DNA of 19,022 nt from the NCBI GenBank assembly GCA_031459535.1, contig JAVKIJ010000061.1, positions 1-19,022 of the forward strand, written 5' to 3'. Each line of letters begins with the position of its first letter. Position 1 is the first letter of the stretch. The notes beneath the pieces were generated by a model, which was not told where the DNA came from, searched no databases, and was given only the letters and a program-made list of their open reading frames with translations. The DNA is from Candidatus Fervidifonticultor quintus (lineage in GTDB: Bacteria > Sysuimicrobiota > Sysuimicrobiia > Sysuimicrobiales > Humicultoraceae). Position numbers and translations under genes: made by a program. Positions 1,189-17,668 of the stretch are shown here, piece by piece.

Positions 1189-3417
1189 CTACGCCGTCGC
1201 CACCCCGCCGACCTGCCGGATCCCCAGGCGCTGCGTGAACTGATAGAGGCCGACAATGACCGCCGCCATGAACAGCACCAGCACCCACGACAGCGCCGCC
1301 GCCAGCCCCACGGTGCCGTAGTTCACGTACGAGAGGATCTGGGTGGTGGCCAGGTTGGTCTGGGGAGTGATCAGGAAGATGACCTGGCTGATGGCCGTCA
1401 TCGCCCGCACGAAACTGAACACCAGCCCGGCCAGGATCGCGGCCCGCACCAGGGGCAGCACGATGCGCCGCAGCGTGGTGGGCGCGCCGGCCCGCAACAT
1501 CGTGGAGGCTTCCTCTAACGATCGGTCGATCTGGTGGATGGCCGCCACCCCGGCGCGCAGCGCGACGGGCATGTTGCGGAACACGAAGGCCAGGATGATG
1601 ATGAACTCGGTCCCGGTCAGCAGCAGCGGGCCCTGGTTGAACGCCAGGATGTAGCCGATGCCCATCACGGTCCCGGGCGTGGCGAACGACAGCATGGACG
1701 AGAACTCCAGCGCCTCCCGGCCGGGGAACGCGTAGCGCGTCACCAGGTAGCCGATGAGAAAGCCGACGAGGGTGGACGGGACGGCGGCGATCGCCGAGAG
1801 GGCGGCCGTGGTCCGGAAGACCTGCCATCCCGTGGGCGACAGGCCCTTGATGTGGGCCAGGGTGAAGGTGTAGTCGAAGCCCCACAGTTTGGTCACGCTG
1901 CCCACGGCGACAGACCCGTAGAGGACCACGATGACCAGCACCCACAGCACGAAGACCGCAGTGACGCCGTAGTCGAGCGCCCAGGGCAGCGGGCGCGCGA
2001 GCCCCGCCCCCGGACGGCCCGTCACGGTCACGTACGACGCCTTCCCGATCCACCGGTTCTGGGTGAGGAAGATGACCAGGGTCATGGCCAGCAGCGTCAC
2101 GCCGAAGACCGCGGCCTCGTTGGGGTTGTAGCGCCCGATGATCGAGAAGAACACCTCGGTGGCCAGGTACGGCTTGCCGCCGCCCACGACGATGGGGTTA
2201 CCGAAGTCGGCCAGGCTCTCGATGGCCACCAGCAGGAACGCGTTGGCGACCCCCGGCCGCGCCAGCGGCCAGATCACGGTCCGCAGGATGTGCCAGCGGT
2301 TCGCCCCCAGCGTCTCAGCCGCCTCCTCCATGGCCACGTCCAGTTGCTGGACCACGCCCTGGAGGATGAGGAACGCGATGGGGGTATACGCCAGCACCTG
2401 CGCCAGCCCCACCCCTAGCGGCCCGAAGAAGACCGTGGTGGACTGGCCCAGGAGCTGGTGCGTGATGAACCCGCGGCGGCCGAAGAGATAGATGATGGCC
2501 AGCCCCAGCACGAACGGCGGCGTGATGATGGGCAGGATCGAGACCGGGCCGAACAGCCGACGGGTGGGCAGCCGCGACCGCTCGGCCAGCAGCGCGAACA
2601 GGAATCCGAGGGCGGTGGAGAGGCCGCCGACCACCAGCGCCAGGAGGATGCTATTGCGCACCGCCCCAAACCCCACGTACAGCGCCGCCACCAGCGTCCC
2701 GCCCACCGCCGTCCCGGCAGCCCACAGTCCGGTGGGGCGGGCCTTGCGGGTGACGGCACCGACCACCAGCCCCGCGAGGGCGGCCATCACCGCACCGGCG
2801 GTGAGCGCGGTCTGCCACTCGTTGTGCGGCGTCAGCGGGTTGTTGACGAGCAGGAAGTTGGGCGACTCGACCGTCTGCCGCACCACCTCCAGGGTGAGGC
2901 GGCCTTTAACCCACACGCTGGCCTGCAGCACCGTGTAGAGCGGGTAGAGGATGAAGATCACGACGAACGCCGCCGACCAGACGATGCACACCCCGATGAA
3001 GGCGTCGGCGTGGATGTAGCCCCCCAGCGCGAGCCCGATCCCGACCAGCGCCAGGAACCCGAGGATCGCCACCAGGGCGCCCGGGCCCATGGGCGCTCCG
3101 CGGGCCGCCAGTGACCAGATGGTGGTCAGGGCGCCGGCGACACCGGCGGCAAGCGCCAGGCGGCCCCTCCGGAACAGCGGCAGGGGCGCCACCCCCAGCG
3201 TCCCGGCCAGCGCCGCCAGGACGACCAGGGTAGCCATGGCCCAGTCGCCAGCCAGCAGCTCATAGCCCAGGGTACCCGGCGTGTAGATGAAGAGGTCGCG
3301 CCCGGGGCGCGCCCACGGCAGGAGCAGCGCCCCGAGCAGGGTGAGGCCACCCCAGGCCACCAGCGTCGCACTGGGCCGGAGGAGGGGCCTGGTCGTGGCG
3401 ATGACGGGTGTGGCCAT
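1189..3417 (-). CDS. ABC transporter permease with two fused TM domains, long AfuB type (transporter A)
   Basis: 742 aa hydrophobic protein with two EAA loops (MEEAAETLGA, LEEASTMLRA), PPFV and SLADFGNP motifs, and extra N-terminal TM helices as in AfuB. Confidence 0.9.
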   Translation of the reverse strand: MATPVIATTRPLLRPSATLVAWGGLTLLGALLLPWARPGRDLFIYTPGTLGYELLAGDWAMATLVVLAALAGTLGVAPLPLFRRGRLALAAGVAGALTTIWSLAARGAPMGPGALVAILGFLALVGIGLALGGYIHADAFIGVCIVWSAAFVVIFILYPLYTVLQASVWVKGRLTLEVVRQTVESPNFLLVNNPLTPHNEWQTALTAGAVMAALAGLVVGAVTRKARPTGLWAAGTAVGGTLVAALYVGFGAVRNSILLALVVGGLSTALGFLFALLAERSRLPTRRLFGPVSILPIITPPFVLGLAIIYLFGRRGFITHQLLGQSTTVFFGPLGVGLAQVLAYTPIAFLILQGVVQQLDVAMEEAAETLGANRWHILRTVIWPLARPGVANAFLLVAIESLADFGNPIVVGGGKPYLATEVFFSIIGRYNPNEAAVFGVTLLAMTLVIFLTQNRWIGKASYVTVTGRPGAGLARPLPWALDYGVTAVFVLWVLVIVVLYGSVAVGSVTKLWGFDYTFTLAHIKGLSPTGWQVFRTTAALSAIAAVPSTLVGFLIGYLVTRYAFPGREALEFSSMLSFATPGTVMGIGYILAFNQGPLLLTGTEFIIILAFVFRNMPVALRAGVAAIHQIDRSLEEASTMLRAGAPTTLRRIVLPLVRAAILAGLVFSFVRAMTAISQVIFLITPQTNLATTQILSYVNYGTVGLAAALSWVLVLFMAAVIVGLYQFTQRLGIRQVGGVATA

Positions 3418-3427
3418 ACCGCGCCGC

Positions 3428-4444
3428 CTACTTGGGCAGCGGGAAGACCTCCCGCGTCCAGCGGTTGACGAGGCCGTCGCGGACGGCGGCCGTCCCGTAC
3501 TTGATGAAGTCGTACTTGATGACCCTGAAGTCCTGGAATCGCGGCGACACCTTGGGCACCGGCGTCTTGCTGTTGGACGGAATCTGATACGACTTGGCCT
3601 CGGCCGCCAGCAGCTGCGCCTCGGGGGACAGCGCCCACTCGATGAACGTGATCCCGTTGGCCCGGTTGGGCGCGCCCCGGACCAGGCTCAGCCCGCCGAT
3701 CTCGTAGCCGGTGCCGTCGCGGGCCGATCCGTACGTGACCGGGAAACCGCTGAGGATCTGCAGGACGGCATCGTGCAGGAACGTCACGCCGATGGCCACC
3801 TCGCCACGGCCCGCCATGACGCCCGGCGCCGCACCGGCCCGAGTGTACTCGGCCACGTTCCGGTGGATCCGCTTGAGCAGGTCGAACGCCTTCGCTTCAC
3901 CGTAGAGCTGGACGATCGTGGCGACCATGGTGTACCCGGTCCCCGAGGTGTTCGGATTCGGGTACGCAACCAGGCCTCGCAGCCGCGGATCGGCCAGGTC
4001 CTCCCAGGTCCTGGGCTCCGGGATGTTCTTCTCGCGGAGCAGACGCCCGTTGACCGCCCATCCCAGGATGCCGGCGTAGAGCGGGATGTATTTGTTGGCG
4101 ACAGCCTCGCGCAACTCGGGCCGGAGGTCGTCCCAGACCTTGGGCTTGTAGAACTCGGTCAGGCCCTCCTCGTTGGCCACGATGTGCGGGTCGCCGGTAC
4201 CTCCGAACCAGACGTCGAAGACCGGGTTCGCCCGCTCGGCCCGCAGCCTGGCCAGCGCCTCGCCCGAGCTCAGCCGGACGAAATCGAGCGCGATCCCGGT
4301 GGCCCGGGGAAACTGGGCCTTGATGAGGTCACACCACTCGACGTTGGGGCTGCACAGCACGACTACGCGCCCGGCCGGCGCGGCGTGCGCGACTCCCAGG
4401 GCCAGAAACACTACGCTCAGGCCCACTGCCAGCACGCGTCTCAT
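3428..4444 (-). CDS. ABC substrate-binding protein, AfuA-like (probable sugar/cyclitol-phosphate binding)
   Basis: Start moved to ATG 4444 (GGGAGGT 6 nt upstream). Signal peptide ends AHA. CS-x5-C, DVWFGGT-DP, SGTGYT, FLHD, GTGYEIGG and YDFIKYG match AfuA as I recall it. Confidence 0.88.
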   Translation of the reverse strand: MRRVLAVGLSVVFLALGVAHAAPAGRVVVLCSPNVEWCDLIKAQFPRATGIALDFVRLSSGEALARLRAERANPVFDVWFGGTGDPHIVANEEGLTEFYKPKVWDDLRPELREAVANKYIPLYAGILGWAVNGRLLREKNIPEPRTWEDLADPRLRGLVAYPNPNTSGTGYTMVATIVQLYGEAKAFDLLKRIHRNVAEYTRAGAAPGVMAGRGEVAIGVTFLHDAVLQILSGFPVTYGSARDGTGYEIGGLSLVRGAPNRANGITFIEWALSPEAQLLAAEAKSYQIPSNSKTPVPKVSPRFQDFRVIKYDFIKYGTAAVRDGLVNRWTREVFPLPK

Positions 4445-4458
4445 GTACCCACCTCCCA

Positions 4459-5307
4459 TCAGGATGCCTGTCCTCCCTCATATACGGTACCACCCCCACC
4501 CCCCTTCCTCACCAGTGGCCGCAGCGTGCGCAGCGTCCTCCGGGCGGCCTCATCGGGATCCGGCCTGGGCAGGATCTCTGCCGACAGGTACCCGCCATAG
4601 CCCATCGCCCGCAGCGTGGCCACGATCTTCTCGAAGTCGAGGTGCCCGAAGCCCGGCGCCCAGCGGTTGCTGTCGGCCGCGTGCACGTGCCACAGCCGCT
4701 CCCCGGCAACCTCCAGGGCGCCCTCGATCGTGGTTTCCTCGATGTTCATGTGGAAGGTATCGGCGAGGATGCCCAGGTGCGGGACGCCCGAGGCCTCGAT
4801 CAGCGCCCGGGTCTCGTCAACGGTCACCAGGAAGTCGGTCTCGTAGCGGTTGATCGGCTCGATGACCAACCGCACGTCAGCGGATGCCGCCTCGTCCAGC
4901 ACCGGCTTCAGCCCCTCGAGGAACCGGCGGCCTGTGGCCTCCGGGCCGCCGTCCGTCCGGCCCCTGATGAGCCCCACGATGACCAGGCTCCGCAGGCGCG
5001 CCGCCGCCCGCACGTGCGCGACCAGCCGCTCGGCGGCCCGCCGCCGCATGTCGGCGTCGGGGCTGGACAGGCACAGCCCGTCGTGCAGATAGGCCTGGCC
5101 GGTGGCTAGCGCGGGGACCGCGAGGCCGGCCTCGCGCACCACGGCCTCGACGCGGCCCAGGTCAATGGTCGCCGGGTCGCGGATCGCCAGCTCGATGCCG
5201 TCGAAGCCCAGGCGGGCCAGGTGAGCGGCGGCGGCTTCCCAGCCGCCGCGCATCGCGACCGCATCGAACGAGGTCTCCTCGACGGACACGGCCAGGCCGA
5301 GCTTCAT
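4459..5307 (-). CDS. iolO: 5-keto-L-gluconate epimerase-like TIM-barrel sugar epimerase
   Basis: Start moved to ATG 5307 (ATGA overlap with the upstream stop). SFDAVAMRG, ELAIRDP, TGQAYLHDGL, GLIRG, EPINRYETDF, ILADTFHMNIEE and HAADSNRWAPGFGH follow Thermotoga TM0416/IolO along its length. Confidence 0.82.
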   Translation of the reverse strand: MKLGLAVSVEETSFDAVAMRGGWEAAAAHLARLGFDGIELAIRDPATIDLGRVEAVVREAGLAVPALATGQAYLHDGLCLSSPDADMRRRAAERLVAHVRAAARLRSLVIVGLIRGRTDGGPEATGRRFLEGLKPVLDEAASADVRLVIEPINRYETDFLVTVDETRALIEASGVPHLGILADTFHMNIEETTIEGALEVAGERLWHVHAADSNRWAPGFGHLDFEKIVATLRAMGYGGYLSAEILPRPDPDEAARRTLRTLRPLVRKGGGGGTVYEGGQAS

Positions 5308-6377
5308 GCGCGACCGTCCCCGGTACCCTTCCCATCGTACAGGACGTGCATGTGCTCGGGGGCCAGCGCCAGATACACCTCGCCGTCGAACATGCGCTCC
5401 CCGGGCGCTGGCTGGTCCACGATCCACTCCATCCCCATGGTTTCGACCCAGTACCGGGCGAGCCCGCCCAGGAAGGCGCTGGTCTTGACGCGGCCACGCA
5501 GCGCCGGCCGACCGGAGACGGCAGACGGCGACGACGACAGCGTCACCGTCTCGGGCCGCACGACCAGCGTGGCCGGACCGGTCGCGGTCGCCCGCGCGAC
5601 CTCGAATTCCAAGTCGCCCAGGCGCACGCGGCGCGACGCGACCACCTGTACCGGCACGAAGTTGGCGAGCCCGACGAAGTCGGCGACGAACCAGTCCACG
5701 GGATGGTAGTAGATCTCCCGCGGGGTGCCCACCTGTACGATCCGGCCCTGGTTCATCACCGCGACCCGGTCCGAGATCGACAGCGCCTCCTCCTGGTCGT
5801 GGGTGACATAGATCGTGGTCTTGCCCAGGCGCTGCTGCAGGGCGCGCAGCTCGGTGCGCACCCGCACCCGCAGCTTCGCGTCCAGGTTGGACAGGGGCTC
5901 GTCCAGCAGCAGCACCTCCGGTTCCACGACCAGGGCCCGCGCCACGGCCACGCGTTGCTGCTGGCCGCCCGACAGCTGGTTGGGGAACTTGTGTTCTTGT
6001 CCCGACAGCCCCACCAGCTCCGCCACCGCGGCGATCCGGCGCCTGGCCTCGGCGTCCCCGATCCCGCGCATTTTCAGGCCGTACCCGATGTTCTCGGCCA
6101 CGGTCATGTGGGGAAACAGCGCATACTCCTGGAACACCATGGCCGTGTTGCGCTTGTGAGGCGGGATGTCGGTCACCCGCTGGTCGCGCACGAAGATGTC
6201 GCCGCTATCGGGGTGGTAGAAACCGGCGATCATGCGCAGCGTGGTGGTCTTGCCGCAGCCCGAGGGCCCCAGCAGCGTGGTGAACTCGCCTTCGGCGACA
6301 TCGAGGGAGACATGGTCCACGGCCAGGGTGGTGCCCAGGCGCTTGGTGACGTCCCGCAGGCGCACGTGGACGGCCAT
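5304..6377 (-). CDS. ABC transporter ATP-binding subunit, AfuC/FbpC/PotA family (transporter B)
   Basis: GPSGCGKT, LSGGQQQR, LLLDEPLSNLD and VTHDQEEA. Starts 1 nt after the permease stop. Confidence 0.93.
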   Translation of the reverse strand: MAVHVRLRDVTKRLGTTLAVDHVSLDVAEGEFTTLLGPSGCGKTTTLRMIAGFYHPDSGDIFVRDQRVTDIPPHKRNTAMVFQEYALFPHMTVAENIGYGLKMRGIGDAEARRRIAAVAELVGLSGQEHKFPNQLSGGQQQRVAVARALVVEPEVLLLDEPLSNLDAKLRVRVRTELRALQQRLGKTTIYVTHDQEEALSISDRVAVMNQGRIVQVGTPREIYYHPVDWFVADFVGLANFVPVQVVASRRVRLGDLEFEVARATATGPATLVVRPETVTLSSSPSAVSGRPALRGRVKTSAFLGGLARYWVETMGMEWIVDQPAPGERMFDGEVYLALAPEHMHVLYDGKGTGDGRA

Positions 6378-6378
6378 G

Positions 6379-8013
6379 CTAGCCCATCCGCAGGGGGCGC
6401 AGCGCCCACCCCGCCGCCGCCTGCGCGATCCCCACCGAGACCAGGGTGAGGATCAACAGCATGGTCGTCAGGGCCGCGGCCGATCCCCAGATGTTGTTGC
6501 CGATCATGTTGAGGATCGCGAAGGTGGCCACCACGTTGCCCGGGGCCACGAGGAAGATGACGATGCTGACGTTGGTGACCGCGCGGATGAACGAGACCAC
6601 GAACGCTCCCACGAACGCCCGCTGCAGCAGCGGCAGGTAGATGTCCCACAGGACGCGCAGCCCGCTGGCCCCCAGGTTCGTGGCGGCCTCTTCGATGGAC
6701 CGCTCGATCTGCTTGAGGGTGGCCACCGCCGCCTGGTAGCCCATGGGCAGGTGCCAGAAGGCCAGCGCCAGGGCGATCACCCAGATGGTGCCCACCAGCT
6801 CCAGCGGCGGCCGGTTGAACGCCAGCACGAAGCCCACGCCCACGAACACCCCCGGCAGGGCCCCGGGCAGCACCGCCAGGAAGTCCAGCGCCTGCCGCAG
6901 CGGCAGCGGCCGCGAGGTGAGGAACGCCACCACGACGCCGACCACGCCGGTGATCACGCCGGCCAGCGCCCCGATCTTGACGCTGGCCCACAGCGTATCC
7001 AGCCGGTCCACCGACAGCCGCCAGTGCGCCAGCGTCGGCGTCCAGTCCCGTCCCCAGATGGTGGTGAACGCGCCGGCGATGACCCCGAAGTAGACCAGGA
7101 AGACCATGACGCTCATCGCGACGCAGAAGGCCACGGTGCCCCACTTCAAGACTGGATGGGTCGGGGGAGGCTCGATCCGCGATCCGCGCCCGCTCACCGT
7201 GGTGTAGACCCGCCGGCTCACCCAGTAGCGTTCCAGCAGGAAGAGGATCGTGGTGGGCACGATGAGCATGGCCACCACCAGCGCCGCGCCCTTCAGATCA
7301 GCCATCCCCTCCATCCGGAACCAGGCCTCGGTAGCCAGCAGTGGAAAGCCGCCGGCGATGACGACCGCGTTGCCGAAGTCGGCCAGGACCGAGATCGCCA
7401 CCACCAGGGCCGCGCCCGCGATCCCTGGACGGGCCAGGGCAAACGAAATCGTGCGCACCACGGTCCACTCGTCGGCGCCGAGATTGCGTGCGGCGTGCTC
7501 CAGGCTGGGGTTGATCGCCTCCAGCACGCCGATGATGATCAGCATCGCCAGGGGGAAGAACGCCACCGTCTGCACGAGCCACAGCCCGTGCCAGCCGAAG
7601 ATGTTGGCGTCCAGCCCCAGCAGGGTCTTGGTGATCAGGCCCTGCCGGCCGAACATCAGAATATAGGCGAACGCCACCATGAAGGGCGGCGCAAAGAGCG
7701 GCAGCAGGGCCATGCTCCTGAAGAAGCGCCTGCCGGGGATGTCCGGGCGCGTGAGGGCGAAGGCGAAGATCAGGCCGCTGGCGGTGGCGGTGAGCGTGGA
7801 GATCACCATCATCACCAGGCTGTTGCGGGCAGCCTGCATCCAGCGCAGGCTCCTGGGGATGGCGAGGTAGTCCTGGAGCCCCGGATACACCAGCACCCGC
7901 AGCGTGGGATAGAGGACGAACAGCGCCAGGACCACGCCGGCGCCCAGAAATGCCAGCAGCACCCCCGGGTCGCCGGCGTGTCGGCGCGCGTCAGTCCACC
8001 GCAGAACGGCCAT
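6379..8013 (-). CDS. ABC transporter permease with two fused TM domains, FbpB/AfuB family (transporter B)
   Basis: 544 aa hydrophobic protein with EAA-like loops LEHAARNLGA and IEEAATNLGA, plus PPFM and LADFGN motifs. Confidence 0.9.
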   Translation of the reverse strand: MAVLRWTDARRHAGDPGVLLAFLGAGVVLALFVLYPTLRVLVYPGLQDYLAIPRSLRWMQAARNSLVMMVISTLTATASGLIFAFALTRPDIPGRRFFRSMALLPLFAPPFMVAFAYILMFGRQGLITKTLLGLDANIFGWHGLWLVQTVAFFPLAMLIIIGVLEAINPSLEHAARNLGADEWTVVRTISFALARPGIAGAALVVAISVLADFGNAVVIAGGFPLLATEAWFRMEGMADLKGAALVVAMLIVPTTILFLLERYWVSRRVYTTVSGRGSRIEPPPTHPVLKWGTVAFCVAMSVMVFLVYFGVIAGAFTTIWGRDWTPTLAHWRLSVDRLDTLWASVKIGALAGVITGVVGVVVAFLTSRPLPLRQALDFLAVLPGALPGVFVGVGFVLAFNRPPLELVGTIWVIALALAFWHLPMGYQAAVATLKQIERSIEEAATNLGASGLRVLWDIYLPLLQRAFVGAFVVSFIRAVTNVSIVIFLVAPGNVVATFAILNMIGNNIWGSAAALTTMLLILTLVSVGIAQAAAGWALRPLRMG

Positions 8014-8025
8014 CCTTCCCTGCCC

Positions 8026-9045
8026 CTAGCGGCCGATCTCGCGCTGCCACCGCTCCCGCAGCCGGGTCATGTTGTCAATGGCCCACTGGCGGTCGTACTT
8101 GACGAACTGCAGTTTCTCGAAGGCCGTGGCGCCCATGGGCACCGGCACGTCAGCCCGCACCGGGTAGCGGAACCCGTAGCTGGCGTTGATGACCTGCGGG
8201 GTGCGGCTCATCAGGAAGTCCACGTAGGCCTTGGCGCCTTCCGGGTTCGGGCCGCCCTTGATGATCGAGACTGCGCCGATCTCGAAGGCGGTATCGGGCG
8301 GCACCGTGGTCTCCAGCGGCTGCTGGGCCGCCAGGCGGGCGCCGATGGCCTCGTGCGCCCACATCATCCCCACGATGGCCTCGCCCCGCGCCAGCAGCGT
8401 GATGGTCCCCGGGGCGGTCGGCGTGTACTGGGACGCGTTGGCGTTGAGGGCCTTCAGGTAGGCCCACGCCCGGTCCTCGCCCAGCCGGAAGATCTGGGCA
8501 GCGACGAAGATGTACCCGCCACCGGTCGTGATGGGGCTGGGCATGACAAAGTGGCCCCGGAACTCGGGACGGATCAGGTCGTCCCACGTGGCCGGCTTGG
8601 GGATCCGGCGGGGCGCCATCTCACGGTCCCACCGGTCGGTGTTGACGATGATGGCCAGCGCGCCCAGGTACCACCCGTGCCAGAAGCCGCCCGGGTCCAG
8701 GTAGGCCGGGCTGACCTTGGCCTCGGCGGCGGCCGGTGACCTGTAGGCGAGCAGCAGGCCCTCGCGGGCCAGCGGCACATGGAAGTCGGCCGAACCGCCG
8801 ACGAAGATGTCGGCGCGCGGCCGATCCTTCTCGGCGCGGATGCGGGCAGCCAGCGTGCCGGCCGCCGCGACGCTCAATGCCTCCACCGGGATGCCGGTCC
8901 TCTTGGTGAACTCCCGGTTCACGAGCGTCGTCTCCAGATCCGGCAGGGCCGAGTACACCACGATCCTGGGCTGCTGGGCATAGCTGACCCCCAACCCGGT
9001 GAGCACCAGCGCCACCAACAGCACTCCAACCGTCAGTCGCCTCAT
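8026..9045 (-). CDS. ABC substrate-binding protein, AfuA/FbpA family, divergent (transporter B)
   Basis: Probable start ATG 9045 (alternatives 9051 and 9054) after GGGGGA. Signal peptide ends SYA. AEKDRPRADIFVGG, PATWDDL and FEIGAVSIIKG are family motifs. Confidence 0.85.
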   Translation of the reverse strand: MRRLTVGVLLVALVLTGLGVSYAQQPRIVVYSALPDLETTLVNREFTKRTGIPVEALSVAAAGTLAARIRAEKDRPRADIFVGGSADFHVPLAREGLLLAYRSPAAAEAKVSPAYLDPGGFWHGWYLGALAIIVNTDRWDREMAPRRIPKPATWDDLIRPEFRGHFVMPSPITTGGGYIFVAAQIFRLGEDRAWAYLKALNANASQYTPTAPGTITLLARGEAIVGMMWAHEAIGARLAAQQPLETTVPPDTAFEIGAVSIIKGGPNPEGAKAYVDFLMSRTPQVINASYGFRYPVRADVPVPMGATAFEKLQFVKYDRQWAIDNMTRLRERWQREIGR

Positions 9046-9098
9046 ACGCATCATCCCCCGTTGCAGAGTGTCACGGCTGGACGAACAGCCTGTCTGGA

Positions 9099-9914
9099 TC
9101 ATTCCGCGGACAGCATGTACCGCTCGATCACCTCCCGCAGGCCATGGTCGTCATTGCTGGGCGCCACTACATCGGCACGGGCGCGCAGCGCCTCGGGCGC
9201 GTGGCCCATGGCCACCCCGAGCCCCGCGTACTCGATCATCCCCAGGTCGTTGAGGTTGTCGCCCACGGCCACAATGGCCTCGCGCTCGATCCCCAGCCGC
9301 GCGGCCAGCGCCTGTAGCGCCGTACCCTTGTCCACGCCCGGCGGCAGGATCTCCAGGTAGATCGTCTCAGAGAAGACGTGGTTGACCGGATAGGGCAGCG
9401 CGTCCACCTCCCGCGCCACGGCCTCCAGCGCCGGGCGCTCGCCGATGATCAGGATCTTCATCGGCTCGCGCCTCGGGTCGGCGTCCAGCCAGTCCGCCAG
9501 ATCCCCCACCGGCTCGGCGCGCAGACTGTCCTTCTGCTGGTAGGTCAGCGTCGCCTCGGTGACGGCAGGCACGTAGACCCGGTCGTCCACGTACAGGTGC
9601 GGCTGGACCGCCGGGTGCCGGCGGAGGATGCGCAGCACATCCCTGGCGTGCCGGACGGGCAGCGGGGTGCGCATCCAGACCTCGTCCCGCGCGAAGTCGT
9701 AGATCATGCCGCCGTTGTAGAGGATGACCGGCGGGTCCGCGCCCAGCGCCTCGACGAACCGGCGGGCGGACGGCCAGATGCGGCCCGTGGCGAGGCAGAC
9801 CCTCACACCCCGCGCCCGCACCTGGGCCACGGCCGCGTGCACCGGAGGCGTGATCTGCCGGGCCGCATTGACCAGCGTCCCGTCGATGTCGGCCACCAGC
9901 AGACGATAGCGCAT
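9099..9914 (-). CDS. Cof-type HAD-IIB family phosphatase
   Basis: Motif I DIDGTL, motif II ATGR, motif III GVDKG and motif IV GDNLND, with AGLGVAMG. The start overlaps the upstream stop (ATG 9914 or GTG 9917). Confidence 0.9.
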   Translation of the reverse strand: MRYRLLVADIDGTLVNAARQITPPVHAAVAQVRARGVRVCLATGRIWPSARRFVEALGADPPVILYNGGMIYDFARDEVWMRTPLPVRHARDVLRILRRHPAVQPHLYVDDRVYVPAVTEATLTYQQKDSLRAEPVGDLADWLDADPRREPMKILIIGERPALEAVAREVDALPYPVNHVFSETIYLEILPPGVDKGTALQALAARLGIEREAIVAVGDNLNDLGMIEYAGLGVAMGHAPEALRARADVVAPSNDDHGLREVIERYMLSAE

Positions 9915-10897
9915 CACGCCAGGGGCAACCGCACCGGCGCGCCGCTTCGGGCGGCGCGGTATGTGGCTTCCACCAGCTCCGTGGCCCGGTAGCCGTCCTC
10001 GGCGGTCACGGCGGGAGGCCGCTCGCCCAGCACCGCGTCAATGAACAGCCGGTCTTCCTCCACGTAGCCCCACTTCTCCTCGAACGCCATCTGAAAACAG
10101 TCTATCGCCTCGACCTGGTCGCGCATACCGGGGGAGAACCAGGCGCGCTCCAGTTCCTCGGTGACCACGGTAGCGTGGTCGCCGTAGATCTCCACGCGCT
10201 CGTAGGGGAACAGCCACGAGGTGTGCGCGACGCTGGTCACCGAGGCCACGACGCCGCCGGCGAACTCGAACAGCATCACGAAGCCGTCGAGCTCATTGTA
10301 GACGCTCTGGCGGGCGGCGCCACTGACCTGCACCACGTCGCCGAAGAGGAACCGCCCCATGTCGAACAGGTGGACCGGCGTCTCATAGAGGTAGCCGCCG
10401 GTCACCGCGGGGTTGCCGGTCCACGGCGGCTGCTTCAGCTCGCCCCGGTTGTGCTTCATCTGCGCCAGACGAGGCGTGATGCGGCCCTCTTCGATGCGCT
10501 GCTTGGCGAACCGGTACACATTGGCGAACCGCCGGTTGAATCCGATCTGGTAGACGCCCCGCGCCCGCCGGGCGGTTTCCTTGATGGTCCTGGCGCCCTC
10601 CAGCGATGTGGCCATGGGCTTCTCAGAGAAGACGTGCAGCCCGGCCTCCAGGGCCGTCACCACCGGCTCCACGTGCATCGAGTTGGGCGTGCAGACATAC
10701 ACCGCCTGCGCGCCGGTGGCGATCAGGGCCGGCAGGCCGTCCAGTGCCGCCGTCCCGCACTCGGCCGCCAGCCGCTGCGCCGCGGCGGGGACCACGTCGG
10801 CCACCCCGACCAGGTCCACGCGGGCGTCACGCTTCAGACACAAGGCGTGGATGCGGCCGATGAATCCCGCGCCCAGAATGCCCACCTTGACACTCAT
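9914..10897 (-). CDS. Gfo/Idh/MocA oxidoreductase, probable inositol 2-dehydrogenase (IolG-like)
   Basis: Start moved to ATG 10897 after GGGAGGAG. Rossmann GAGFIG, CTPN..H, SEKP, GFNRRF and GGYLYETPVHLFD. Substrate inferred from the neighbours. Confidence 0.8.
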   Translation of the reverse strand: MSVKVGILGAGFIGRIHALCLKRDARVDLVGVADVVPAAAQRLAAECGTAALDGLPALIATGAQAVYVCTPNSMHVEPVVTALEAGLHVFSEKPMATSLEGARTIKETARRARGVYQIGFNRRFANVYRFAKQRIEEGRITPRLAQMKHNRGELKQPPWTGNPAVTGGYLYETPVHLFDMGRFLFGDVVQVSGAARQSVYNELDGFVMLFEFAGGVVASVTSVAHTSWLFPYERVEIYGDHATVVTEELERAWFSPGMRDQVEAIDCFQMAFEEKWGYVEEDRLFIDAVLGERPPAVTAEDGYRATELVEATYRAARSGAPVRLPLA

Positions 10898-10935
10898 GTG
10901 CTCCTCCCTGGTGTCGTTGCGCTCGCTGGCACCCG

Positions 10936-11763
10936 TCAATCGAACAGTTGCTTCATGCGGGCCAGGCCCACCCGCGCGACTTCCGAGGGATCCATGGCCC
11001 AGTAAGCGGGCCGGAACAGCTCCAGGGAATAGGCGCCCCGGTAGCCGATCTCCTCCAGCCGCGCCAGCAGCGGCTTCAGCGGGATCACGCCGTCCCCCGG
11101 CCACAGCCGCTGGGCGTCGGTGAGCGCAGCCGGGGGACCGGGCTCCGCGTCGTCGAGGTGTACGATGAAGATCCGGGAGCCGTCCAGCCCGTCCAGGTCC
11201 TCGAGCCGTGAACCGCCGGCGTAGAAGTGGAAGGCGTCGATCACGAGACCCACCCTGGGATCGCCCACGTCGTCTACGATCACCCGGGCCGCCCGCAGTG
11301 TGTTCACCGAGTTGGCCGCAAACCCCAGGAACTCGAACCCGACCATCACGCCGTACGCTCCCGCGACCGCAGCCATGGCGCGCAGCGCGGCCGCCGAGCG
11401 GACCCGCACCTGGGCCTCGTCCAGGCCCCCGGGCGGCAGGAAGCTCGGGACGCTGATGACGTAGGGGCAATCCAGGGCACGGGCCCACTCGCAGAAGGTG
11501 CGCGCCCGGGCCAGCACCACCTCCAGCGCCGGCCCGACCCGCAGGGTGGAGTCTTCCAGCGCGTTGATGCTGAGCACCTCGACCCCGGCCTGCTGCAGCA
11601 GGCCGCGCAGCGAGGCCAGGGTGCCGCCCGAGGCCAGGTACTGCTCGATCTTCGCATCCCGGAGCTCCACCACCTGATAGCCGGCCTCGCCTGCCACGCG
11701 GATGTCGGTGGCGAGGTCGACGGCAGCACCGGTGGTGGCGCCGTTGAGTCCAAATCTTCGCAT
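10936..11763 (-). CDS. iolI: Inosose isomerase (2-keto-myo-inositol isomerase)-like TIM-barrel protein
   Basis: Start moved to ATG 11763. FGLNGATT, SINAL, EFLG..NSVNT, GLVIDAFHF, IFIVHLDDAE, LTDAQRLWPGDG and SLELFRPAY parallel B. subtilis IolI as I recall it. Confidence 0.78.
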   Translation of the reverse strand: MRRFGLNGATTGAAVDLATDIRVAGEAGYQVVELRDAKIEQYLASGGTLASLRGLLQQAGVEVLSINALEDSTLRVGPALEVVLARARTFCEWARALDCPYVISVPSFLPPGGLDEAQVRVRSAAALRAMAAVAGAYGVMVGFEFLGFAANSVNTLRAARVIVDDVGDPRVGLVIDAFHFYAGGSRLEDLDGLDGSRIFIVHLDDAEPGPPAALTDAQRLWPGDGVIPLKPLLARLEEIGYRGAYSLELFRPAYWAMDPSEVARVGLARMKQLFD

Positions 11764-11771
11764 GGGCACCC

Positions 11772-12614
11772 CTATCCTTTCTCTCGCACCACGCCGAACG
11801 TCAGGGCCCCCACGACGTACCGGCGCGCGAGCAGCAGCAAGATGACCGGCACCAGCGCCGAGATGGTCCCGGCAGCCGCCATCTCGTTCCAGATGATCTC
11901 GAACTGGGTCACCAGGCTGGCGACACCGATCGAGAACGTCTGCGAGGTCGGAGAGGCGGTCAGGATGAACGCGAACATGAACTCGCTCCATGTCAGCGAG
12001 AACGCGATGACCGCCGCCGCCAGCAACGCCGGCGCCAGCTGGGGTAGCAGGATCTGGACGAAGGCCCGCAGCCGCGTGGCGCCGTCGACCAGCGCGGCCT
12101 CCTCGATCTCCATGGGCACCTCGGCCAGGAACCCCTTGAGCATCCAGACCACGAACGGCAGGCAGAACACCGTATACAGGAAGATGAGCGATTGCCGGGT
12201 GTCGTACAGCCCGAAGCCTCGCACGATGTCGAAGAACGGAATCACCACGACGATCGGGGGCAAGAAGCGCAGGCTGAGGATCCAGCCGAACAGGCCCCGC
12301 CGGAAGCCCGGGTGCACCTGGAGCCGCGTCAACGGGTAGGCGATGAGCAGGCCGAGCGCGATGGCGCCGGCGACCGCGGCCAGGGCGATCACCAAGCTGT
12401 TGGCCAGCAGCTGACTGTAGCCGCGCCGCCCCAGCACCGACGCGAACGCCTCCGCCGTGGGCGCGGCCGGGGCCACCGTAGGCGGGTAGCGGTAGAGCTC
12501 GGCCTTGGACTTCAGGCCCGTGGAGAGCATCCAGAAGAACGGAAACAGGTAGAGCACCACAATCAGCGCCAGCACACCGTAGGCCAGGACCACCCAGACC
12601 CGCCTCCAGGTCAC
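11772..12614 (-). CDS. Carbohydrate ABC permease, MalG-like
   Basis: GTG start 12614 (GTGA overlap). FPFFWMLSTGLK, EIEEAALVDGA and WSEF motifs. Confidence 0.9.
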   Translation of the reverse strand: MTWRRVWVVLAYGVLALIVVLYLFPFFWMLSTGLKSKAELYRYPPTVAPAAPTAEAFASVLGRRGYSQLLANSLVIALAAVAGAIALGLLIAYPLTRLQVHPGFRRGLFGWILSLRFLPPIVVVIPFFDIVRGFGLYDTRQSLIFLYTVFCLPFVVWMLKGFLAEVPMEIEEAALVDGATRLRAFVQILLPQLAPALLAAAVIAFSLTWSEFMFAFILTASPTSQTFSIGVASLVTQFEIIWNEMAAAGTISALVPVILLLLARRYVVGALTFGVVREKG

Positions 12615-13531
12615 ATCACGCCCTCCGTGGCCAGCCATCGGTTGAGCAGCGAGAACATCAGCGACGTGACCATGACCACGTAGAACCCGATGGCGGCCGC
12701 ATATCCCAGGTCGAAGAACTTGAACGCGATCCGGTACAGGTAGACGCTGATGAACTCGGTGGACGCGCCCGGCCCGCCAGCGGTCAGCACCAGCACGTGG
12801 TCGAACACCCGGAACGTGTCGGTGAACCGGAAGATGAGCAGCAGGAGCAGCAGCGACTTCAGGTACGGCAGCTCGATGAGCCGGAACAGGCTCCACCCGC
12901 CGGCGCCGTCCACCCTGGCGGCCTCGGCGACGTCTATGGGCACGGCGGTGAACCCCGCGAAACAGACCAGGAAGACGAACGGCGTCCACTGCCAGATGTC
13001 CACGCTCAGGACCGAGAACATGGCGCCCGCGCCGGTGGACAGCCAGAGGATATCCTTGTCGATCAGCCCCACGGCGCGCAGCGCGTGGTTCAGGATCCCG
13101 TAGTTCGGCGTGTAGATGAGCCGTGCGATCACCCCGGCCACGACCGGCGGGGTGACCATGGGGATGATGAGCAACAGGTAGACCGCCGACCGCACCGTGG
13201 CGCTGACGATCGTCCGGTGGATAAACAGTGCCAGCGCCAGGCCCAGGACGATCTCGACCCCCACGGCCAGGACCACGTAGATGCCGGTCGCTTTCAACGA
13301 GGCCGCGAACAGCGGGTCATCGAAGACACGGACGAAGTTGTGCAGCCCGACGAACGCGCCGGTCCGGTAGCTGCGGACGCTGAGGTTGACGTTGTAGAGC
13401 ATCGGGTACGCGACCAGCAAGAACAGCAGCAGGATGGGGATTCCTGCCAGCAGATACGGCGTTGCCTGTCGCAGCCTGGCCGCGGCCGTCATGGGGATCG
13501 GCGGGGGACCGACGCCGTCGGTCCCCCGCAT
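12611..13531 (-). CDS. Carbohydrate ABC permease, MalF-like
   Basis: FVGLHNF, DIWQWTPF, EAARVDGA, FRVFD and TAGGPG motifs. Start uncertain: ATG 13531 or ATG 13492. Confidence 0.88.
   Translation of the reverse strand: MRGTDGVGPPPIPMTAAARLRQATPYLLAGIPILLLFLLVAYPMLYNVNLSVRSYRTGAFVGLHNFVRVFDDPLFAASLKATGIYVVLAVGVEIVLGLALALFIHRTIVSATVRSAVYLLLIIPMVTPPVVAGVIARLIYTPNYGILNHALRAVGLIDKDILWLSTGAGAMFSVLSVDIWQWTPFVFLVCFAGFTAVPIDVAEAARVDGAGGWSLFRLIELPYLKSLLLLLLIFRFTDTFRVFDHVLVLTAGGPGASTEFISVYLYRIAFKFFDLGYAAAIGFYVVMVTSLMFSLLNRWLATEGVM
13501..13529. repeat. Perfect 14-bp inverted repeat (stem-loop) just after the binding-protein gene
   Basis: GCGGGGGACCGACG-C-CGTCGGTCCCCCGC, read directly from the sequence. 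No U-tract follows on the minus strand. Confidence 0.85.
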
Positions 13532-13535
13532 CGCC

Positions 13536-14837
13536 CTACTTATAGTACCCTGCCTCGCGCATGTGCTTCTCGATCTCCTGGGCGGCCTTAGCAATGGCGT
13601 CCTCGGGCGTCTCCAGGCCCGCCAGCGCCGCGTTCACGTGGGTACCCAGGATCGCCTCAACCGCGAACCACTCCGACGTGCGCGGACGCCACTGGGCCGG
13701 CGCCTCCAGCGAGGCCGCCATGGCCTTGAAGAACGCAAACTTCTTGTTCATCTCGGCATCCAGCAGCACGGACTTCCTGAAGGGGATGCCGCCGCCCAGC
13801 GCATACGGCTTCTGGACGTTCTTGCCGGTCGCCCAGAGAATGAACTCGTACGCCCAGCGCTTGTTCTTGGACCCCTGCGGGATACCCAACAGCCAGTTGC
13901 CGATCAGCGGCCCGTGAATGTTCCCCGGCCCGCGCGGTGCCAACGTGTACCCCATCTTGCCGATCACCTTGGAGACCGAAGGGTTCTCGACGATGTCGGT
14001 GATCTCGGCCGGCCAGATGAAGCCCTGCGCCGCGCGGCCCACGGCCACCTCCCGCGCGCGCTCGGCGGCATCGTAGTTCTCGACTCCGGGTGGCGCGTAC
14101 TGCTTGAGGTCCTTGGCGAAGAACTTCAGGGCTGCGACCGCTTCTTTGGAATTCAGGACGACCTTCCAGTTGTCATCGAAGATCTTACCGCCAAACGACA
14201 GCAGGACCGGCGTGAACTCAGAGATGACCGGGTTGCCCTTCGCACCCCGCAGGACCATGCCATAGAGGGGCTTGGCTGGATCCTGCACCTTCTTGGCGTT
14301 GGCGATGACGTCATCCCAGGTCTTGGGCTCCGAGACCAGGTCCTTCCGGTACATGAAGAACTCCACGTTCCCCACCAGCGTGATGGCGTAGAGCTGCCTG
14401 GGCTTGCCCTTCTCGCCGGGCGGCACCGGCCCGCGGGGCGGCGGCCACGAGCCCAGGTCGTACACGACGGGGAAGATGTCCGGGTCGCGCTTGTATCCGA
14501 ACTCCTTGTCCAGCGGCGTCAGCCACGCCTCGGAGCCGAATTTGGGCATCCAGGGGTCGTCCGCGATCAGCAGGTCGTAGGTCGCGGCCCTGGCCTGAAA
14601 CGTCGTGACCAGTTTCTCGTAGAGGGTGGGGTAAGGGAACTCGACGAGCTCGATCTTGAGGCCCCTCTCCTTCTCCCACATGGGCAGGATCGCCTTGAGG
14701 CCCTTGGTCTCACCTCCGGCGACGACGGCCATCGTGAGCTTCGCGGGCTTAGGCGGCAGGCCCTGGGCCCCCAGCGGCACCGCGTTAACCGCCAGCGCCA
14801 GGGCGATCAGCAACGCGACTGCTATCGCCATGCGCAC
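13536..14837 (-). CDS. Carbohydrate (CUT1, SBP family 1) ABC substrate-binding protein, probably inositol/polyol
   Basis: GTG start after AAAGGGGGT. Signal peptide, YDLLIADDPW, MYRKDL, PKTWDD, GNWLLGIP and RPRTSEW are typical of polyol/sugar SBPs. Confidence 0.88.
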   Translation of the reverse strand: MRMAIAVALLIALALAVNAVPLGAQGLPPKPAKLTMAVVAGGETKGLKAILPMWEKERGLKIELVEFPYPTLYEKLVTTFQARAATYDLLIADDPWMPKFGSEAWLTPLDKEFGYKRDPDIFPVVYDLGSWPPPRGPVPPGEKGKPRQLYAITLVGNVEFFMYRKDLVSEPKTWDDVIANAKKVQDPAKPLYGMVLRGAKGNPVISEFTPVLLSFGGKIFDDNWKVVLNSKEAVAALKFFAKDLKQYAPPGVENYDAAERAREVAVGRAAQGFIWPAEITDIVENPSVSKVIGKMGYTLAPRGPGNIHGPLIGNWLLGIPQGSKNKRWAYEFILWATGKNVQKPYALGGGIPFRKSVLLDAEMNKKFAFFKAMAASLEAPAQWRPRTSEWFAVEAILGTHVNAALAGLETPEDAIAKAAQEIEKHMREAGYYK

Positions 14838-14919
14838 ATCTGTGACCCCCTTTCGACCTGGTCTACGTTCGGGCTGATGCGGCGCTCACCTCCCTTCCCG
14901 GCGCCCAGGGGCGCGTCAT

Positions 14920-16089
14920 CTACGAGCGCACCATCACCTTGCCGTCCTGCCGCTTCGAGGCCCTCTCCACGGCGGCGACGGCCTGGTCCAGCGGAAAGCG
15001 GCTCGTGATGATCTGCGTCATGTCGATGCGGCGGGCGGCCATGAGCCGGATGACATATGGGAAGTTGCCGTACCCCGAGTGGCCCTGGGCGCCGAAGACC
15101 TGTCCCGCGTGGGTCTGGAAGTGCTCCAGGTACATGGGCACGCGCTCAGACGCGCGGCCGATCATGACGACCTTGCCGCCGAACGCCAGCGTCTCCTCCA
15201 TCTCGGGGATCGTCAACGGCGGTGCACCCGCCGCCTCCACGTGCATGTCGATGCCCTCGCCCTTGGTCTGCTCCCGGATGACGTCGCGGGGCCGAATGCC
15301 CTGCTTCTGCAGCTCGACCGGGTCGTAGACGAGGTCTGCGCCGACCTTCCTGGCGAGCTCCCGGCGGACCGGCGAGACCTCGAACGCCATGATGAGTCCG
15401 GCGCCGGCGGCCCTGGCCAGGGCGATGGCGGCGAAGCCGATGGGCCCCGTGCCGAAGACGGTCACGTAGCCGCCCGGCTTGAACCCCCCGGCCCGGGTGA
15501 ACATGGCGTTGTACGAGACGCTGGTGGGCTCGCACAACGCGCCGGCCTCGTAGCCCTTGTCCACGCTGCCGTAGGCATTGGCGAGCGCGTCGATCTTCCA
15601 GCAGTACTTGGCGCCGATGACGATGGACTCGGCCTGCGCCCCGTGGACGGTGAAGCCGATCTCTTCCAGGTTGAGGCACTGGTTGGGATATCCGTTGCGG
15701 CACGGGGTGCACTCGCCGCACCAGATCATCTCTTCGGCTGTCACCATGTCGCCGACCCGCAAGTCCTTGACCTCCCGGCCCACCTCGATAACCTCGCCCG
15801 AGAACTCGTGGCCGATGATCACCGGGAACTTGGTGAGGCCCGGGTAGAGCATGTAGCCGTCCGCATCGGTCTCGTAGAAGTGCACGTCCGACCCGCAGAT
15901 GCCGCAGGCCCGGGGACGCAGCCGGACATCCTTGGGACCCAGCGGCGTCTCCGGCAGGTCCTCCAGGCGCAGCTTCGGATGCCTCCACACACTGCTCCCG
16001 GTCACAGCCTTGCCGGTGGTCCGCTCGAACTCGCTGAGGGTGTAGCCGTCTCGCGGTGTCCACTCGGCGTCCAGGACAAGGCCCTTCAT
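14920..16089 (-). CDS. iolM: Zn-dependent scyllo-inosose 3-dehydrogenase-like enzyme
   Basis: CGICGSDVH, GHEFSG, structural Zn C-x2-C-x2-C-x7-C and GTGPIG. Diagnostic segments AEWTPR, GSSVWRHP, GYMLYPGLTKFP, AEEMIWCG, EPTSVSYNA and QGHSGYGNFP match Thermotoga TM0412/IolM as I recall it. Confidence 0.87.
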   Translation of the reverse strand: MKGLVLDAEWTPRDGYTLSEFERTTGKAVTGSSVWRHPKLRLEDLPETPLGPKDVRLRPRACGICGSDVHFYETDADGYMLYPGLTKFPVIIGHEFSGEVIEVGREVKDLRVGDMVTAEEMIWCGECTPCRNGYPNQCLNLEEIGFTVHGAQAESIVIGAKYCWKIDALANAYGSVDKGYEAGALCEPTSVSYNAMFTRAGGFKPGGYVTVFGTGPIGFAAIALARAAGAGLIMAFEVSPVRRELARKVGADLVYDPVELQKQGIRPRDVIREQTKGEGIDMHVEAAGAPPLTIPEMEETLAFGGKVVMIGRASERVPMYLEHFQTHAGQVFGAQGHSGYGNFPYVIRLMAARRIDMTQIITSRFPLDQAVAAVERASKRQDGKVMVRS

Positions 16090-16108: not shown

Positions 16109-17143
16109 TCATGCGCTTTCTTGGATCACGGGGCGTCGCAGGCGGGCCCCGCACGAGTCCCGCACCACGAGCCTGGGCTCCAGGACCAGGCGGCGGGGCC
16201 GGCGGTCGCCTCCGCCGAGCAGTTCCAGGAGCCGCTCCATCGCCAGGCAACCCATGCGGTACTTGGGCTGCGCCACGGTCGTGAGGCGGGGTTCCACCAG
16301 CGAAGCGAACGTGATGTCATCGAACCCCACCACCGCCACGTCCTGGGGAACCCGGCGGCCGCAGCGCCGCAACTCCTCCATGCCGCCGATCGCCATCAGG
16401 TCGTTGGCAGCCACGATCGCCGTAAACCGTGTGCGGCGCTCAAGCAGCTCGCGGACGGCAGCGCCGCCGCCCTCGGCGCGAAAGCCGCCGTCGCAAATGA
16501 CGGCAGGATCGGCGACGATTCCCGCTGAGGCCAGGGCGTCCTGATAACCGGCCAGCCGCTCGTTGGCCACCGGCAGGGTCGGGGGCCCGCCGATGAACGC
16601 AATCCGCCGGTGCCCCAGACGGAGCAGGTGCTCGGTCGCCTCGCGCGCGCCCCGGCGGTTGTCCACCAGCACCGCATCGATGCTCACGCGGTCGGGCGCC
16701 CGCGCGACCAGCACCACGGGCACACCCTGCCGCCGCAGCATGCGCAGGTGCGCGGTGTTGGCGCCCACGGTGGCGAAGATCAGACCGTCCACCATGCGCT
16801 TGTCGAGCAGGGCCAGATATGTGCGCTCCTTGGCCAGATCCTCATAGGTGTTGCACAGCAAGACGCCCATGCCGGCGCGGCTGGCCACGTCCTCGATGCC
16901 GCGGGCGATGGCAGGGAAGAACGGATTGCTGATGTCGGGAACGATGAGCCCGACCGTGCCGGTGACACGCTTCTTGAGGCCGCGGGCGACCAGATTGGGT
17001 TGATAGCGCAGGCGCGCCACAGCGGCCAGCACCCGGCCGCGGGTATCGGGACGGACACCGTAGGCGCTGCCGCTGACGACGCGGGAGACTGTGGCCACAG
17101 ATACCCCGGCGGCTTGCGCCACCTCGCGGATCGTCACCGTCAC
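16109..17143 (-). CDS. LacI-family transcriptional regulator
   Basis: GTG 17143 with GGAGG 6 nt upstream. HTH TIREVAQAAGVSVATVSRV, hinge YQPNLVARGL, PDISNPFF, NDLMAIG and VPQDVAVVGFDD. Confidence 0.95.
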   Translation of the reverse strand: MTVTIREVAQAAGVSVATVSRVVSGSAYGVRPDTRGRVLAAVARLRYQPNLVARGLKKRVTGTVGLIVPDISNPFFPAIARGIEDVASRAGMGVLLCNTYEDLAKERTYLALLDKRMVDGLIFATVGANTAHLRMLRRQGVPVVLVARAPDRVSIDAVLVDNRRGAREATEHLLRLGHRRIAFIGGPPTLPVANERLAGYQDALASAGIVADPAVICDGGFRAEGGGAAVRELLERRTRFTAIVAANDLMAIGGMEELRRCGRRVPQDVAVVGFDDITFASLVEPRLTTVAQPKYRMGCLAMERLLELLGGGDRRPRRLVLEPRLVVRDSCGARLRRPVIQESA

Positions 17144-17191
17144 CGCCAGCCTCCGGCGCCTCGGGTGGTACGGGTACAACTGCCCACTGGT

Positions 17192-17205
17192 TGTAATCGT
17201 TTACA
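17192..17205. promoter_or_regulatory. LacI-family operator
   Basis: TGTAATCGTTTACA is a CG-centred palindrome with one mismatch. It forms an AT-rich island 48 nt upstream of the lacI start. Confidence 0.8.
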
Positions 17206-17212
17206 CAAACCT

Positions 17213-17240
17213 CTTCGGTGCGTTGCGGCGCACTCCTCCC
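17213..17240 (-). promoter_or_regulatory. Putative sigma-H-like promoter of the lacI-iol operon
   Basis: GGGAGGA-N17-GAAG has the same geometry as the B. subtilis sigma-H AGGA-N17-GAAT. The operator starts 7 nt downstream, around the expected +1. Confidence 0.5.
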
Positions 17241-17252
17241 GTGCAGGCGCGG

Positions 17253-17639: not shown

Positions 17640-17668
17640 GGCTGCATCCCTCCCGCTGCGCGGAAGAC

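Follow-up and report, generated by a model that had tools for sequence, protein, structure and literature searches.

How is the inositol ring opened by an organism whose inositol operon lacks the gene for the ring-opening hydrolase, IolN? The question is raised by a 19,022-base stretch of DNA from Candidatus Fervidifonticultor quintus (hereafter the window, meaning the whole stretch that was analyzed), which carries a catabolic operon, headed by a LacI-type regulator gene, for the Thermotoga-type route of inositol breakdown. An earlier note on this DNA described iolM-, iolI-, iolG-, and iolO-like genes in one apparent operon with "no known ring-opening enzyme" and left two options: either iolN is encoded elsewhere, or the ring is opened by another catalyst such as the IolI-like TIM barrel. 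Our data support the first option. A divergent iolN is encoded on another contig of the genome, so no unknown ring-opening catalyst is needed, and we think it likely that this is the known Thermotoga-type pathway, with the operonic iolN deleted and ring opening provided in trans by the divergent, N-terminally extended IolN.

The window is an entire contig (C97) of a metagenome bin (G000; 3.1 Mb in 138 contigs, 88.9% complete, 5.2% contamination). Because its GC content is approximately 69%, reading frames were selected by third-position GC (GC3); genes were named with Pfam and NCBIfam, against which 18 open reading frames (ORFs) of the window were scanned. The operon genes, from 17179 to 100, are all encoded on the minus strand and either overlap slightly or are separated by short gaps; the operon extends to base 100. 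The features closest to the ring-opening step are as follows:

14920..16089, minus strand: IolM, scyllo-inosose 3-dehydrogenase of the zinc MDR family (NF041097, PDB 3ip1)
10936..11763, minus strand: IolI-family xylose-isomerase-like TIM barrel, putative inosose isomerase (family profile against 1i60)
9914..10897, minus strand: IolG-like NAD-dependent Gfo/Idh/MocA dehydrogenase (TIGR04380 below cut-off; 4hkt, 3ezy)
5304..6377, minus strand: ATPase of importer 2 (ABC_tran and TOBE_2)
5304..5307, minus strand: junction without iolN, where the stop of the ATPase gene and the start of iolO share the letters ATGA (comparison with relatives)
4459..5307, minus strand: IolO, 5-keto-L-gluconate epimerase (NF041099, PDB 2zvr)

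Two of these enzymes pass equivalog cut-offs, IolM with 548.4 bits against 450 (NF041097) and IolO with 321.2 bits against 300 (NF041099). The best solved relative of IolM is 3ip1 (E 4e-100), which we take to be the T. maritima IolM homologue, and that of IolO is 2zvr (E 2.4e-71), whose entry names TM_0416. Among 13 matches to the IolG model in the genome, the IolG-like dehydrogenase ranks first; the solved chains nearest to it are the inositol dehydrogenases 4hkt and 3ezy. The observation of the earlier note is thus confirmed, with IolM and IolO above equivalog cut-offs, the IolI-like barrel matched by a family profile, and the dehydrogenase IolG-like but below the cut-off of its model; the limits given there, 4459 and 16089, are the iolO stop and the iolM start. 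Its statement that the stretch holds no creatininase-family gene and no IolE-, IolD-, or IolB-type match also agrees with our Pfam and NCBIfam scan of the 18 window ORFs. In the proposed route, the IolG-like dehydrogenase would yield scyllo-inosose, IolM would convert this to 3-dehydro-scyllo-inosose, IolN would hydrolyze the ring to 5-keto-L-gluconate, and IolO would epimerize that product to D-tagaturonate. One paper (PMC12632266) gives the T. maritima IolO as a 5-keto-L-gluconate 4-epimerase.

Comparison with relatives locates the missing gene precisely. The relatives are 40 genomes (41 including the bin itself) that NCBI labels Armatimonadota, with two unpublished genomes (G013 and G022) included in the counts; five of them, three from the same genus and two from the same family, were compared with the window gene by gene. 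The operon order in these five is LacI-IolM-(ABC)-IolI-IolG-HAD-ABC-IolN-IolO-ABC, and all five carry approximately 1.0–1.1 kb with a full-length IolN (525–536 bits) between the importer 2 ATPase gene and iolO. This interval is the ancestral iolN site, from which the copy in the bin has been cleanly deleted. An IolO orthologue (at least 51% identity) was found in 26 of the 40 relatives, and a comparison of coordinates by eye placed iolN directly upstream of it (within 1 kb, same strand) in 23 of these 26, or 21 of 24 without the two unpublished genomes. Two others (G002 and G035) are cut by contig ends at these genes, and one (G009) has no operonic iolN. In the window, the ATPase gene and iolO overlap by 4 nt at their stop and start, and compared with relatives neither the C-terminus of the ATPase nor the N-terminus of IolO is shortened, which makes this a clean loss of approximately 1.0–1.1 kb.

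Could the absence of iolN be an assembly artefact? The genome is fragmented into 138 contigs, and two paralogous importers, one on either side of iolO, invite mis-joins. However, the overlap is exact to the gene with both neighbors at full length, and contigs from four public runs span the junction. These runs (X1–X4) come from one study labelled hot springs metagenome, possibly the source of the bin: X1 and X2 each contribute a 1,273-base contig covering 4300–5441, and X3 and X4 each a 175-base contig covering 5265–5439, all bridging the junction as in the window. Different organisms also share the architecture, since the ATPase gene adjoins iolO without iolN in G009 as well, and a metagenome contig (L129) holds a third iolN-less operon of the same type. 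We therefore regard an artefact as very hard to credit. Alignment of the run contigs to the window also produced many short-sided joints (19–29 letters) and loose ends, one of them at 5286 in all four runs, which we take as other organisms that share short words with the window rather than as variants of the bin's strain. Each of the four runs has one contig that follows the window as far as 5286 before diverging, and its 30 loose letters resemble the iolO start of another organism with a different upstream region; the habitat probably also contains a related strain or species.

The loss does not seem to be a single event. In a maximum-likelihood tree of the ATPase and IolO (620 columns, 20 operons), the window groups with three iolN-bearing operons (support 98/97), and the label "iolN-less" must change at least twice. 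On this tree, loss of iolN from the operon at least twice would be required. The counts among relatives are given without a statistic, since related genomes do not sample independently.

The earlier note had itself proposed a genome-wide search for an iolN orthologue as the test of its missing-step claim, and that search found one. A gene on contig C12 (6980–7885) matches the IolN equivalog model NF041098 with 309 bits against a cut-off of 245 and also matches Pfam Creatininase. It is the only gene in the genome above this cut-off; eleven weaker creatininase-like matches reach at most 98 bits. The claim that the pathway has no known ring-opening enzyme thus fails, whereas the suggestion that iolN is encoded elsewhere is supported.

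This IolN belongs to a distinct subtype, the full-length members of which share a conserved N-terminal extension of approximately 70 residues without a Pfam match. Among the 41 genomes, only the bin and G009 encode the extended subtype (none of the 39 others do), and these same two are the only ones seen without an operonic iolN, given that G002 and G035 are cut by contig ends. The two extended proteins are 91% identical. The G009 copy (369 residues, 323 bits) is internal to a contig of 33 kb, where it separates genes that are direct neighbors in contig C13 of the bin and its flanks match C13 at 71–74%, so the two genomes hold the extended iolN at different sites.

Beyond these relatives, the extended subtype keeps company with the same pathway genes. 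It occurs inside IolG-IolM-IolN-IolO clusters in other phyla, and in the best 80 of 562 genome loci around it, where it is 74–91% identical, an IolM-like gene lies within 10 kb in 70 and an IolO-like gene in 65. Its neighbors pass their cut-offs at two loci for which bit scores were recorded, L157 (IolG 468, IolM 496, and IolO 382 bits) and L201 (IolM 556 and IolO 340 bits). Among 80 metagenome loci centered on IolO, 66 of which had enough upstream DNA, IolN stands directly upstream in 59, with 35 of the extended and 24 of the operonic kind. Metagenome-assembled genomes labelled NC10, Chloroflexota, Armatimonadota, and others carry versions of the extended protein (C12:6980–7885 in the bin; L124:16165–17274) that are 63–91% identical. 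Such conservation is unusually high for a catabolic hydrolase. In an alignment of seven sequences from both IolN subtypes, 86 columns are invariant, including the motifs TE.HG, HPYHH, N.HGQ, and HADE.E, among which are motifs resembling the metal site of the creatininase fold. The extended IolN may therefore catalyze the same reaction as the operonic one, as these shared motifs and gene neighborhoods suggest, and in the bin it would supply the ring-opening step as a case of displacement by a divergent homologue.

Several observations weigh against this reading. The C12 gene is cut by the end of a 7,886-base contig, with approximately 70 N-terminal codons missing, and a search of the genome found the missing part assembled nowhere in the bin. 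Most of C12 is native, because its positions 1–5955 match same-genus contigs at 69–86% DNA identity, but this similarity stops before the last 1.9 kb, which holds an HD-GYP gene and iolN, and the similarity to G009 is restricted to the iolN gene itself; the contig end may be chimeric. The C12 protein is only 40–47% identical to the operonic IolNs of relatives, the extended subtype scores 306–323 bits on NF041098 against approximately 530 for operonic IolNs, and we know of no assayed enzyme of this subtype. The IolG-like dehydrogenase reaches 165.8 bits on TIGR04380, under the cut-off of 355. Finally, the route below D-tagaturonate is incomplete in the bin: C100 carries a UxaE-family gene and C84 a split altronate-dehydratase-like pair, while neither UxuA nor a Mannitol_dh-type reductase was found in the 88.9%-complete bin.

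Taken together, the missing 5′ end at a contig edge, the 5.2% contamination of the bin, the flanks that are non-syntenic with G009 and with same-genus genomes, and the gaps below tagaturonate could also mean that the pathway is truncated, such that the deletion of iolN abolished the function and the C12 gene plays no part, whether because it is mis-binned, chimeric, broken, or active on another substrate. Under that account, however, IolO would be useless without the product of IolN, yet it is intact and above its equivalog cut-off. In G009, too, an operon without iolN is accompanied by an extended IolN, whose gene lies well inside its contig and is flanked by sequence that matches the bin's own C13, and the subtype is missing from every relative outside this pair. 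We thus consider a truncated pathway unlikely. We also considered whether the left end of the window might join the right end of C12, as a short ORF running off base 1 has a compatible frame; this was rejected, as the window end does not encode the conserved extension, and the absence of any overlap of at least 12 nt among the contig ends of the bin also tells against abutment.

The second option of the earlier note, that the IolI-like barrel opens the ring, may be judged from the family and the company of that protein. Used alone as a query, the barrel sequence matched no PDB chain at E ≤ 0.001. A profile built from 28 members of its family (A1), however, matched B. subtilis IolI (1i60) with E 3.4e-66, far ahead of the next match at 82 bits, and aligned over the full length (profile positions 3–268 to residues 2–266), which is why the name IolI-like is right. 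JGI labels its relatives 2-keto-myo-inositol isomerase, and the closest metagenome relative, on a 63.6-kb contig, is 93% identical. That the window has no creatininase-family gene, and that the barrel is conserved, would fit a role for it, or for some other enzyme of the operon, as opener of the diketo-inositol ring. Yet each of the five relatives carries the barrel (70–79% identical) at the same place beside the IolG-like gene in an operon that also has iolN, and the barrel and iolN also occur together in metagenome operons such as L128, L134, L143, L145, L148, L151, and L161. Because the barrel coexists with iolN in this way, it is not a substitute for it. With a full-length IolI-family assignment and an IolN equivalog in the genome as well, we consider ring opening by an operon-encoded enzyme other than IolN extremely improbable.

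Judged from sequence, then, the barrel is an addition to the pathway and not a stand-in for the hydrolase. In B. subtilis, IolI links D-chiro-inositol to scyllo-inosose, and by analogy the barrel likely brings a second inosose isomer into the route. The combination of IolI with IolG, IolM, IolN, and IolO is conserved across the family and recurs in metagenome contigs, so the earlier note's description of a variant pathway in a non-Thermotoga, high-GC lineage was a fair one.

The operon contains further genes that the note did not list, namely a LacI regulator, a sugar-type importer, a Cof-type HAD phosphatase, and two AfuA-like importers:

17192..17205, no strand assigned: candidate LacI-family operator, a near-palindromic motif of 14 nt immediately ahead of the LacI gene (motif TGTAAWCGWTTACA; low confidence)
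16109..17179, minus strand: LacI-family transcriptional regulator, the first gene of the operon (Pfam LacI and Peripla_BP_3)
13536..14837, minus strand: SBP1, sugar/polyol-type ABC substrate-binding protein (SBP_bac_1, Pfam)
12611..13594, minus strand: permease 1a of the sugar-type ABC importer (BPD_transp_1; UgpA/GlcT-like)
11772..12614, minus strand: permease 1b of the sugar-type ABC importer (BPD_transp_1; GlcU-like; GTG start chosen where it overlaps the permease 1a stop)
9099..9917, minus strand: Cof-type HAD-IIB phosphatase (TIGR00099)
8026..9102, minus strand: SBP2, AfuA/P5PA-family organophosphate-type binding protein (PDB 6wce, 4r72)
6379..8013, minus strand: fused two-domain permease of importer 2 (two BPD_transp_1 stretches; PhnU2-like)
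3428..4459, minus strand: SBP3, AfuA-like binder of importer 3 (PDB 4r72)
1189..3417, minus strand: fused permease of importer 3 (BPD_transp_1 twice)
100..1170, minus strand: ATPase of importer 3, final gene ahead of the end of the contig (ABC_tran and TOBE_2)

Importers 2 and 3 share a layout of binder, fused permease, and ATPase, and their binders are homologous to AfuA and P5PA. SBP2 is closest to a pyridoxal-5-phosphate (PLP) binder (PDB 6wce, E 7.5e-39) and to 4r72 (E 2e-37), SBP3 is closest to 4r72 (E 4e-68), and the two binders are 30% identical to each other. The 4r72 structure belongs with the AfuABC study, the abstract of which describes AfuABC as a hexose- and heptose-phosphate transporter. 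The importer 3 fused permease is 76% identical over approximately 700 residues in G003. Two to three organophosphate-type importers are found per operon: a third AfuA-like importer, 37–60% identical to importer 2, lies between iolO and importer 3 in L108 (14356–18052; G008), L109 (14275–17954; G018), and L128. The sugar-type importer (11772–14837) consists of a binder and two permeases, and the window holds no ATPase gene for it; the best solved relatives of SBP1 are the sugar, maltose, and sorbitol binders 5iai, 6dtq, and 4rya. The operons of same-family G008 and G018 lack this importer, and in them IolM, IolI, and IolG follow one another directly. For comparison, PMC3750489 lists the Ino regulon with InoEFGK.

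The phosphatase gene is located between the AfuA-like importers and the dehydrogenase gene. Its product scores 190.6 bits on TIGR00099 against a cut-off of 137, and its solved relatives (3niw, 1rkq, and 1nf2) are sugar-phosphatase-type HADs. The simplest reading of this arrangement would be that phosphorylated cyclitols are imported and then dephosphorylated. The operon context and the adjacent phosphatase suggest inositol phosphates as ligands of the AfuA-like importers, so that one sugar-type and two organophosphate-type importers would take up inositols, and probably inositol phosphates, the phosphatase would release the cyclitol, and the IolI-family isomerase would supply a second inosose isomer next to the scyllo-inosose made by the IolG-like dehydrogenase.

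The same genes also allow another substrate. The dehydrogenase lies under the IolG cut-off, the known ligands of AfuA-family binders are sugar phosphates and PLP, and SBP1 resembles sugar and polyol binders, so the operon might act on a cyclitol or sugar other than myo-inositol, such as imported phosphorylated sugars, with the names IolM and IolO over-reading its specificity. Three separate enzymes, IolM, IolO, and the genomic IolN, are nevertheless above curated equivalog cut-offs, and an IolI-family gene is adjacent, which makes another substrate quite improbable, though less so than ring opening by the barrel.

Regulation by the LacI-family protein may be suggested by its place at the head of the operon. 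The regulator is 79–83% conserved at the same position in four of the five relatives' loci, these being the four that reach it. The candidate operator TGTAAWCGWTTACA was matched once in the window, with 0.01 matches expected by chance, and in G001 it occurs upstream of both the LacI gene and the IolI-like gene. It is absent at up to two mismatches from the loci of the other four relatives, and the candidate is weak because the motif is conserved in only one of the five. Just upstream of the LacI gene is a gene for a 128-residue cyclophilin-like protein (17253–17639, minus strand; PF04126, 135.5 bits). An acyl-CoA dehydrogenase gene (17091–18929, plus strand), with three Pfam domains from near ORF residue 239, is divergent from the operon and probably unrelated to it.

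Elsewhere in the 88.9%-complete bin, searches with the IolD, IolE, and IolB models of the classical inositol route found no IolD equivalog (best model match 250.3 bits, cut-off 715) and no IolE equivalog (best 31.6 bits, cut-off 290). The IolD-model match, on C106, was rejected as an acetolactate synthase beside its small subunit and ketol-acid reductoisomerase in an ilv cluster. A KduI/IolB-family gene on C23 (4466–5296; L127) reaches 178 bits on the IolB model, which has a cut-off of 205; it follows TctC/TctA tricarboxylate-type transporter genes, precedes a HAD hydrolase, and is unlinked to the iol genes.

The fate of D-tagaturonate might be sought among the genes that recur near iolN and iolO. 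A PPi-phosphofructokinase-subfamily gene and a Cgl0159-like gene are found beside iolN-iolO in relatives and metagenome contigs. G009, G018, and G023 have both on the contig that carries iolO, in G037 the kinase gene directly follows iolO, and among the 80 metagenome IolO loci, many of which are too short to tell, the kinase was seen in nine and the Cgl0159-like gene in five. The sole solved relative of the Cgl0159-like protein is the uncharacterized 3fok. In G009 (L123:2330–6539), its gene has a tartronate semialdehyde reductase gene nearby, the product of which scores above the model cut-off, and in the bin (C106:50129–52970; L208:8130–10971) it is beside a tartronate semialdehyde reductase and a hydroxypyruvate-isomerase-like barrel. 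We speculate that the kinase phosphorylates D-tagaturonate at C1, with the carboxylate mimicking the 6-phosphate of fructose 6-phosphate, that the Cgl0159-like protein is an aldolase giving dihydroxyacetone phosphate (DHAP) and tartronate semialdehyde, and that the reductase then forms glycerate. No kinase of this subfamily is assembled in the bin, and G003, which is 98% complete with a full operon, has neither the kinase nor the Cgl0159-like gene. A broader account, in which the operon family feeds an undescribed glycolysis-like lower pathway, is tentative and rather unlikely; the loss of iolN at least twice, with an extended IolN elsewhere in both resolved genomes, stands apart from it.

An apparently missing catalytic step in this operon would have implied a new C–C hydrolase; instead, the step is probably covered by a member of a known family whose gene lies at another place in the genome. 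The locus offers a clear case in which a divergent homologue has displaced an operon gene, with a loss that recurs in related organisms, and a warning that a missing step should not be read from a single contig of a fragmented bin. Combined with IolI, a phosphatase, and importers of the sugar-phosphate type, the Thermotoga-type route occurs widely in the family and in metagenomes, which fits feeding on inositol phosphates, and the recurring pair of kinase and Cgl0159-like genes is a testable candidate for the fate of D-tagaturonate.

Literature searches on IolM, IolN, and IolO and on the T. maritima Ino genes returned almost nothing relevant. The T. maritima inositol operon, TM0411–TM0421, reportedly comprises IolR, IolM, IolN, IolG, the TM0415 kinase, IolO, and InoEFGK, as set out by Rodionova et al. 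in 2013. The bin resembles it in the core set of IolG-like, IolM, IolN, and IolO proteins, with IolM and IolO closest to 3ip1 and 2zvr (TM_0416), and in the linkage of the operon to an ABC importer and to phosphate-ester handling. Unlike the T. maritima operon, which has a ROK-type regulator, that of the bin has a LacI-type one; it also differs in having an IolI-family isomerase, a Cof-type phosphatase, and three importers, with no ribokinase-family kinase, and in its iolN, which is unlinked and of the divergent, N-terminally extended subtype.

The classical iolABCDEG systems of B. subtilis, C. glutamicum, and Caulobacter share with the bin the proposed first step of IolG-type oxidation and the presence of an IolI, but neither IolD nor IolE was found in this genome. 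The family profile of the barrel matches B. subtilis IolI (1i60) over its full length, and the barrel is encoded in an inositol cluster next to a dehydrogenase, although that cluster belongs to a Thermotoga-type pathway rather than to the IolE/IolD/IolB pathway. On the uptake side, the Actinobacillus AfuABC/P5PA systems offer the closest solved relatives of SBP3 and SBP2 and have the same layout of binder, fused permease, and ATPase.

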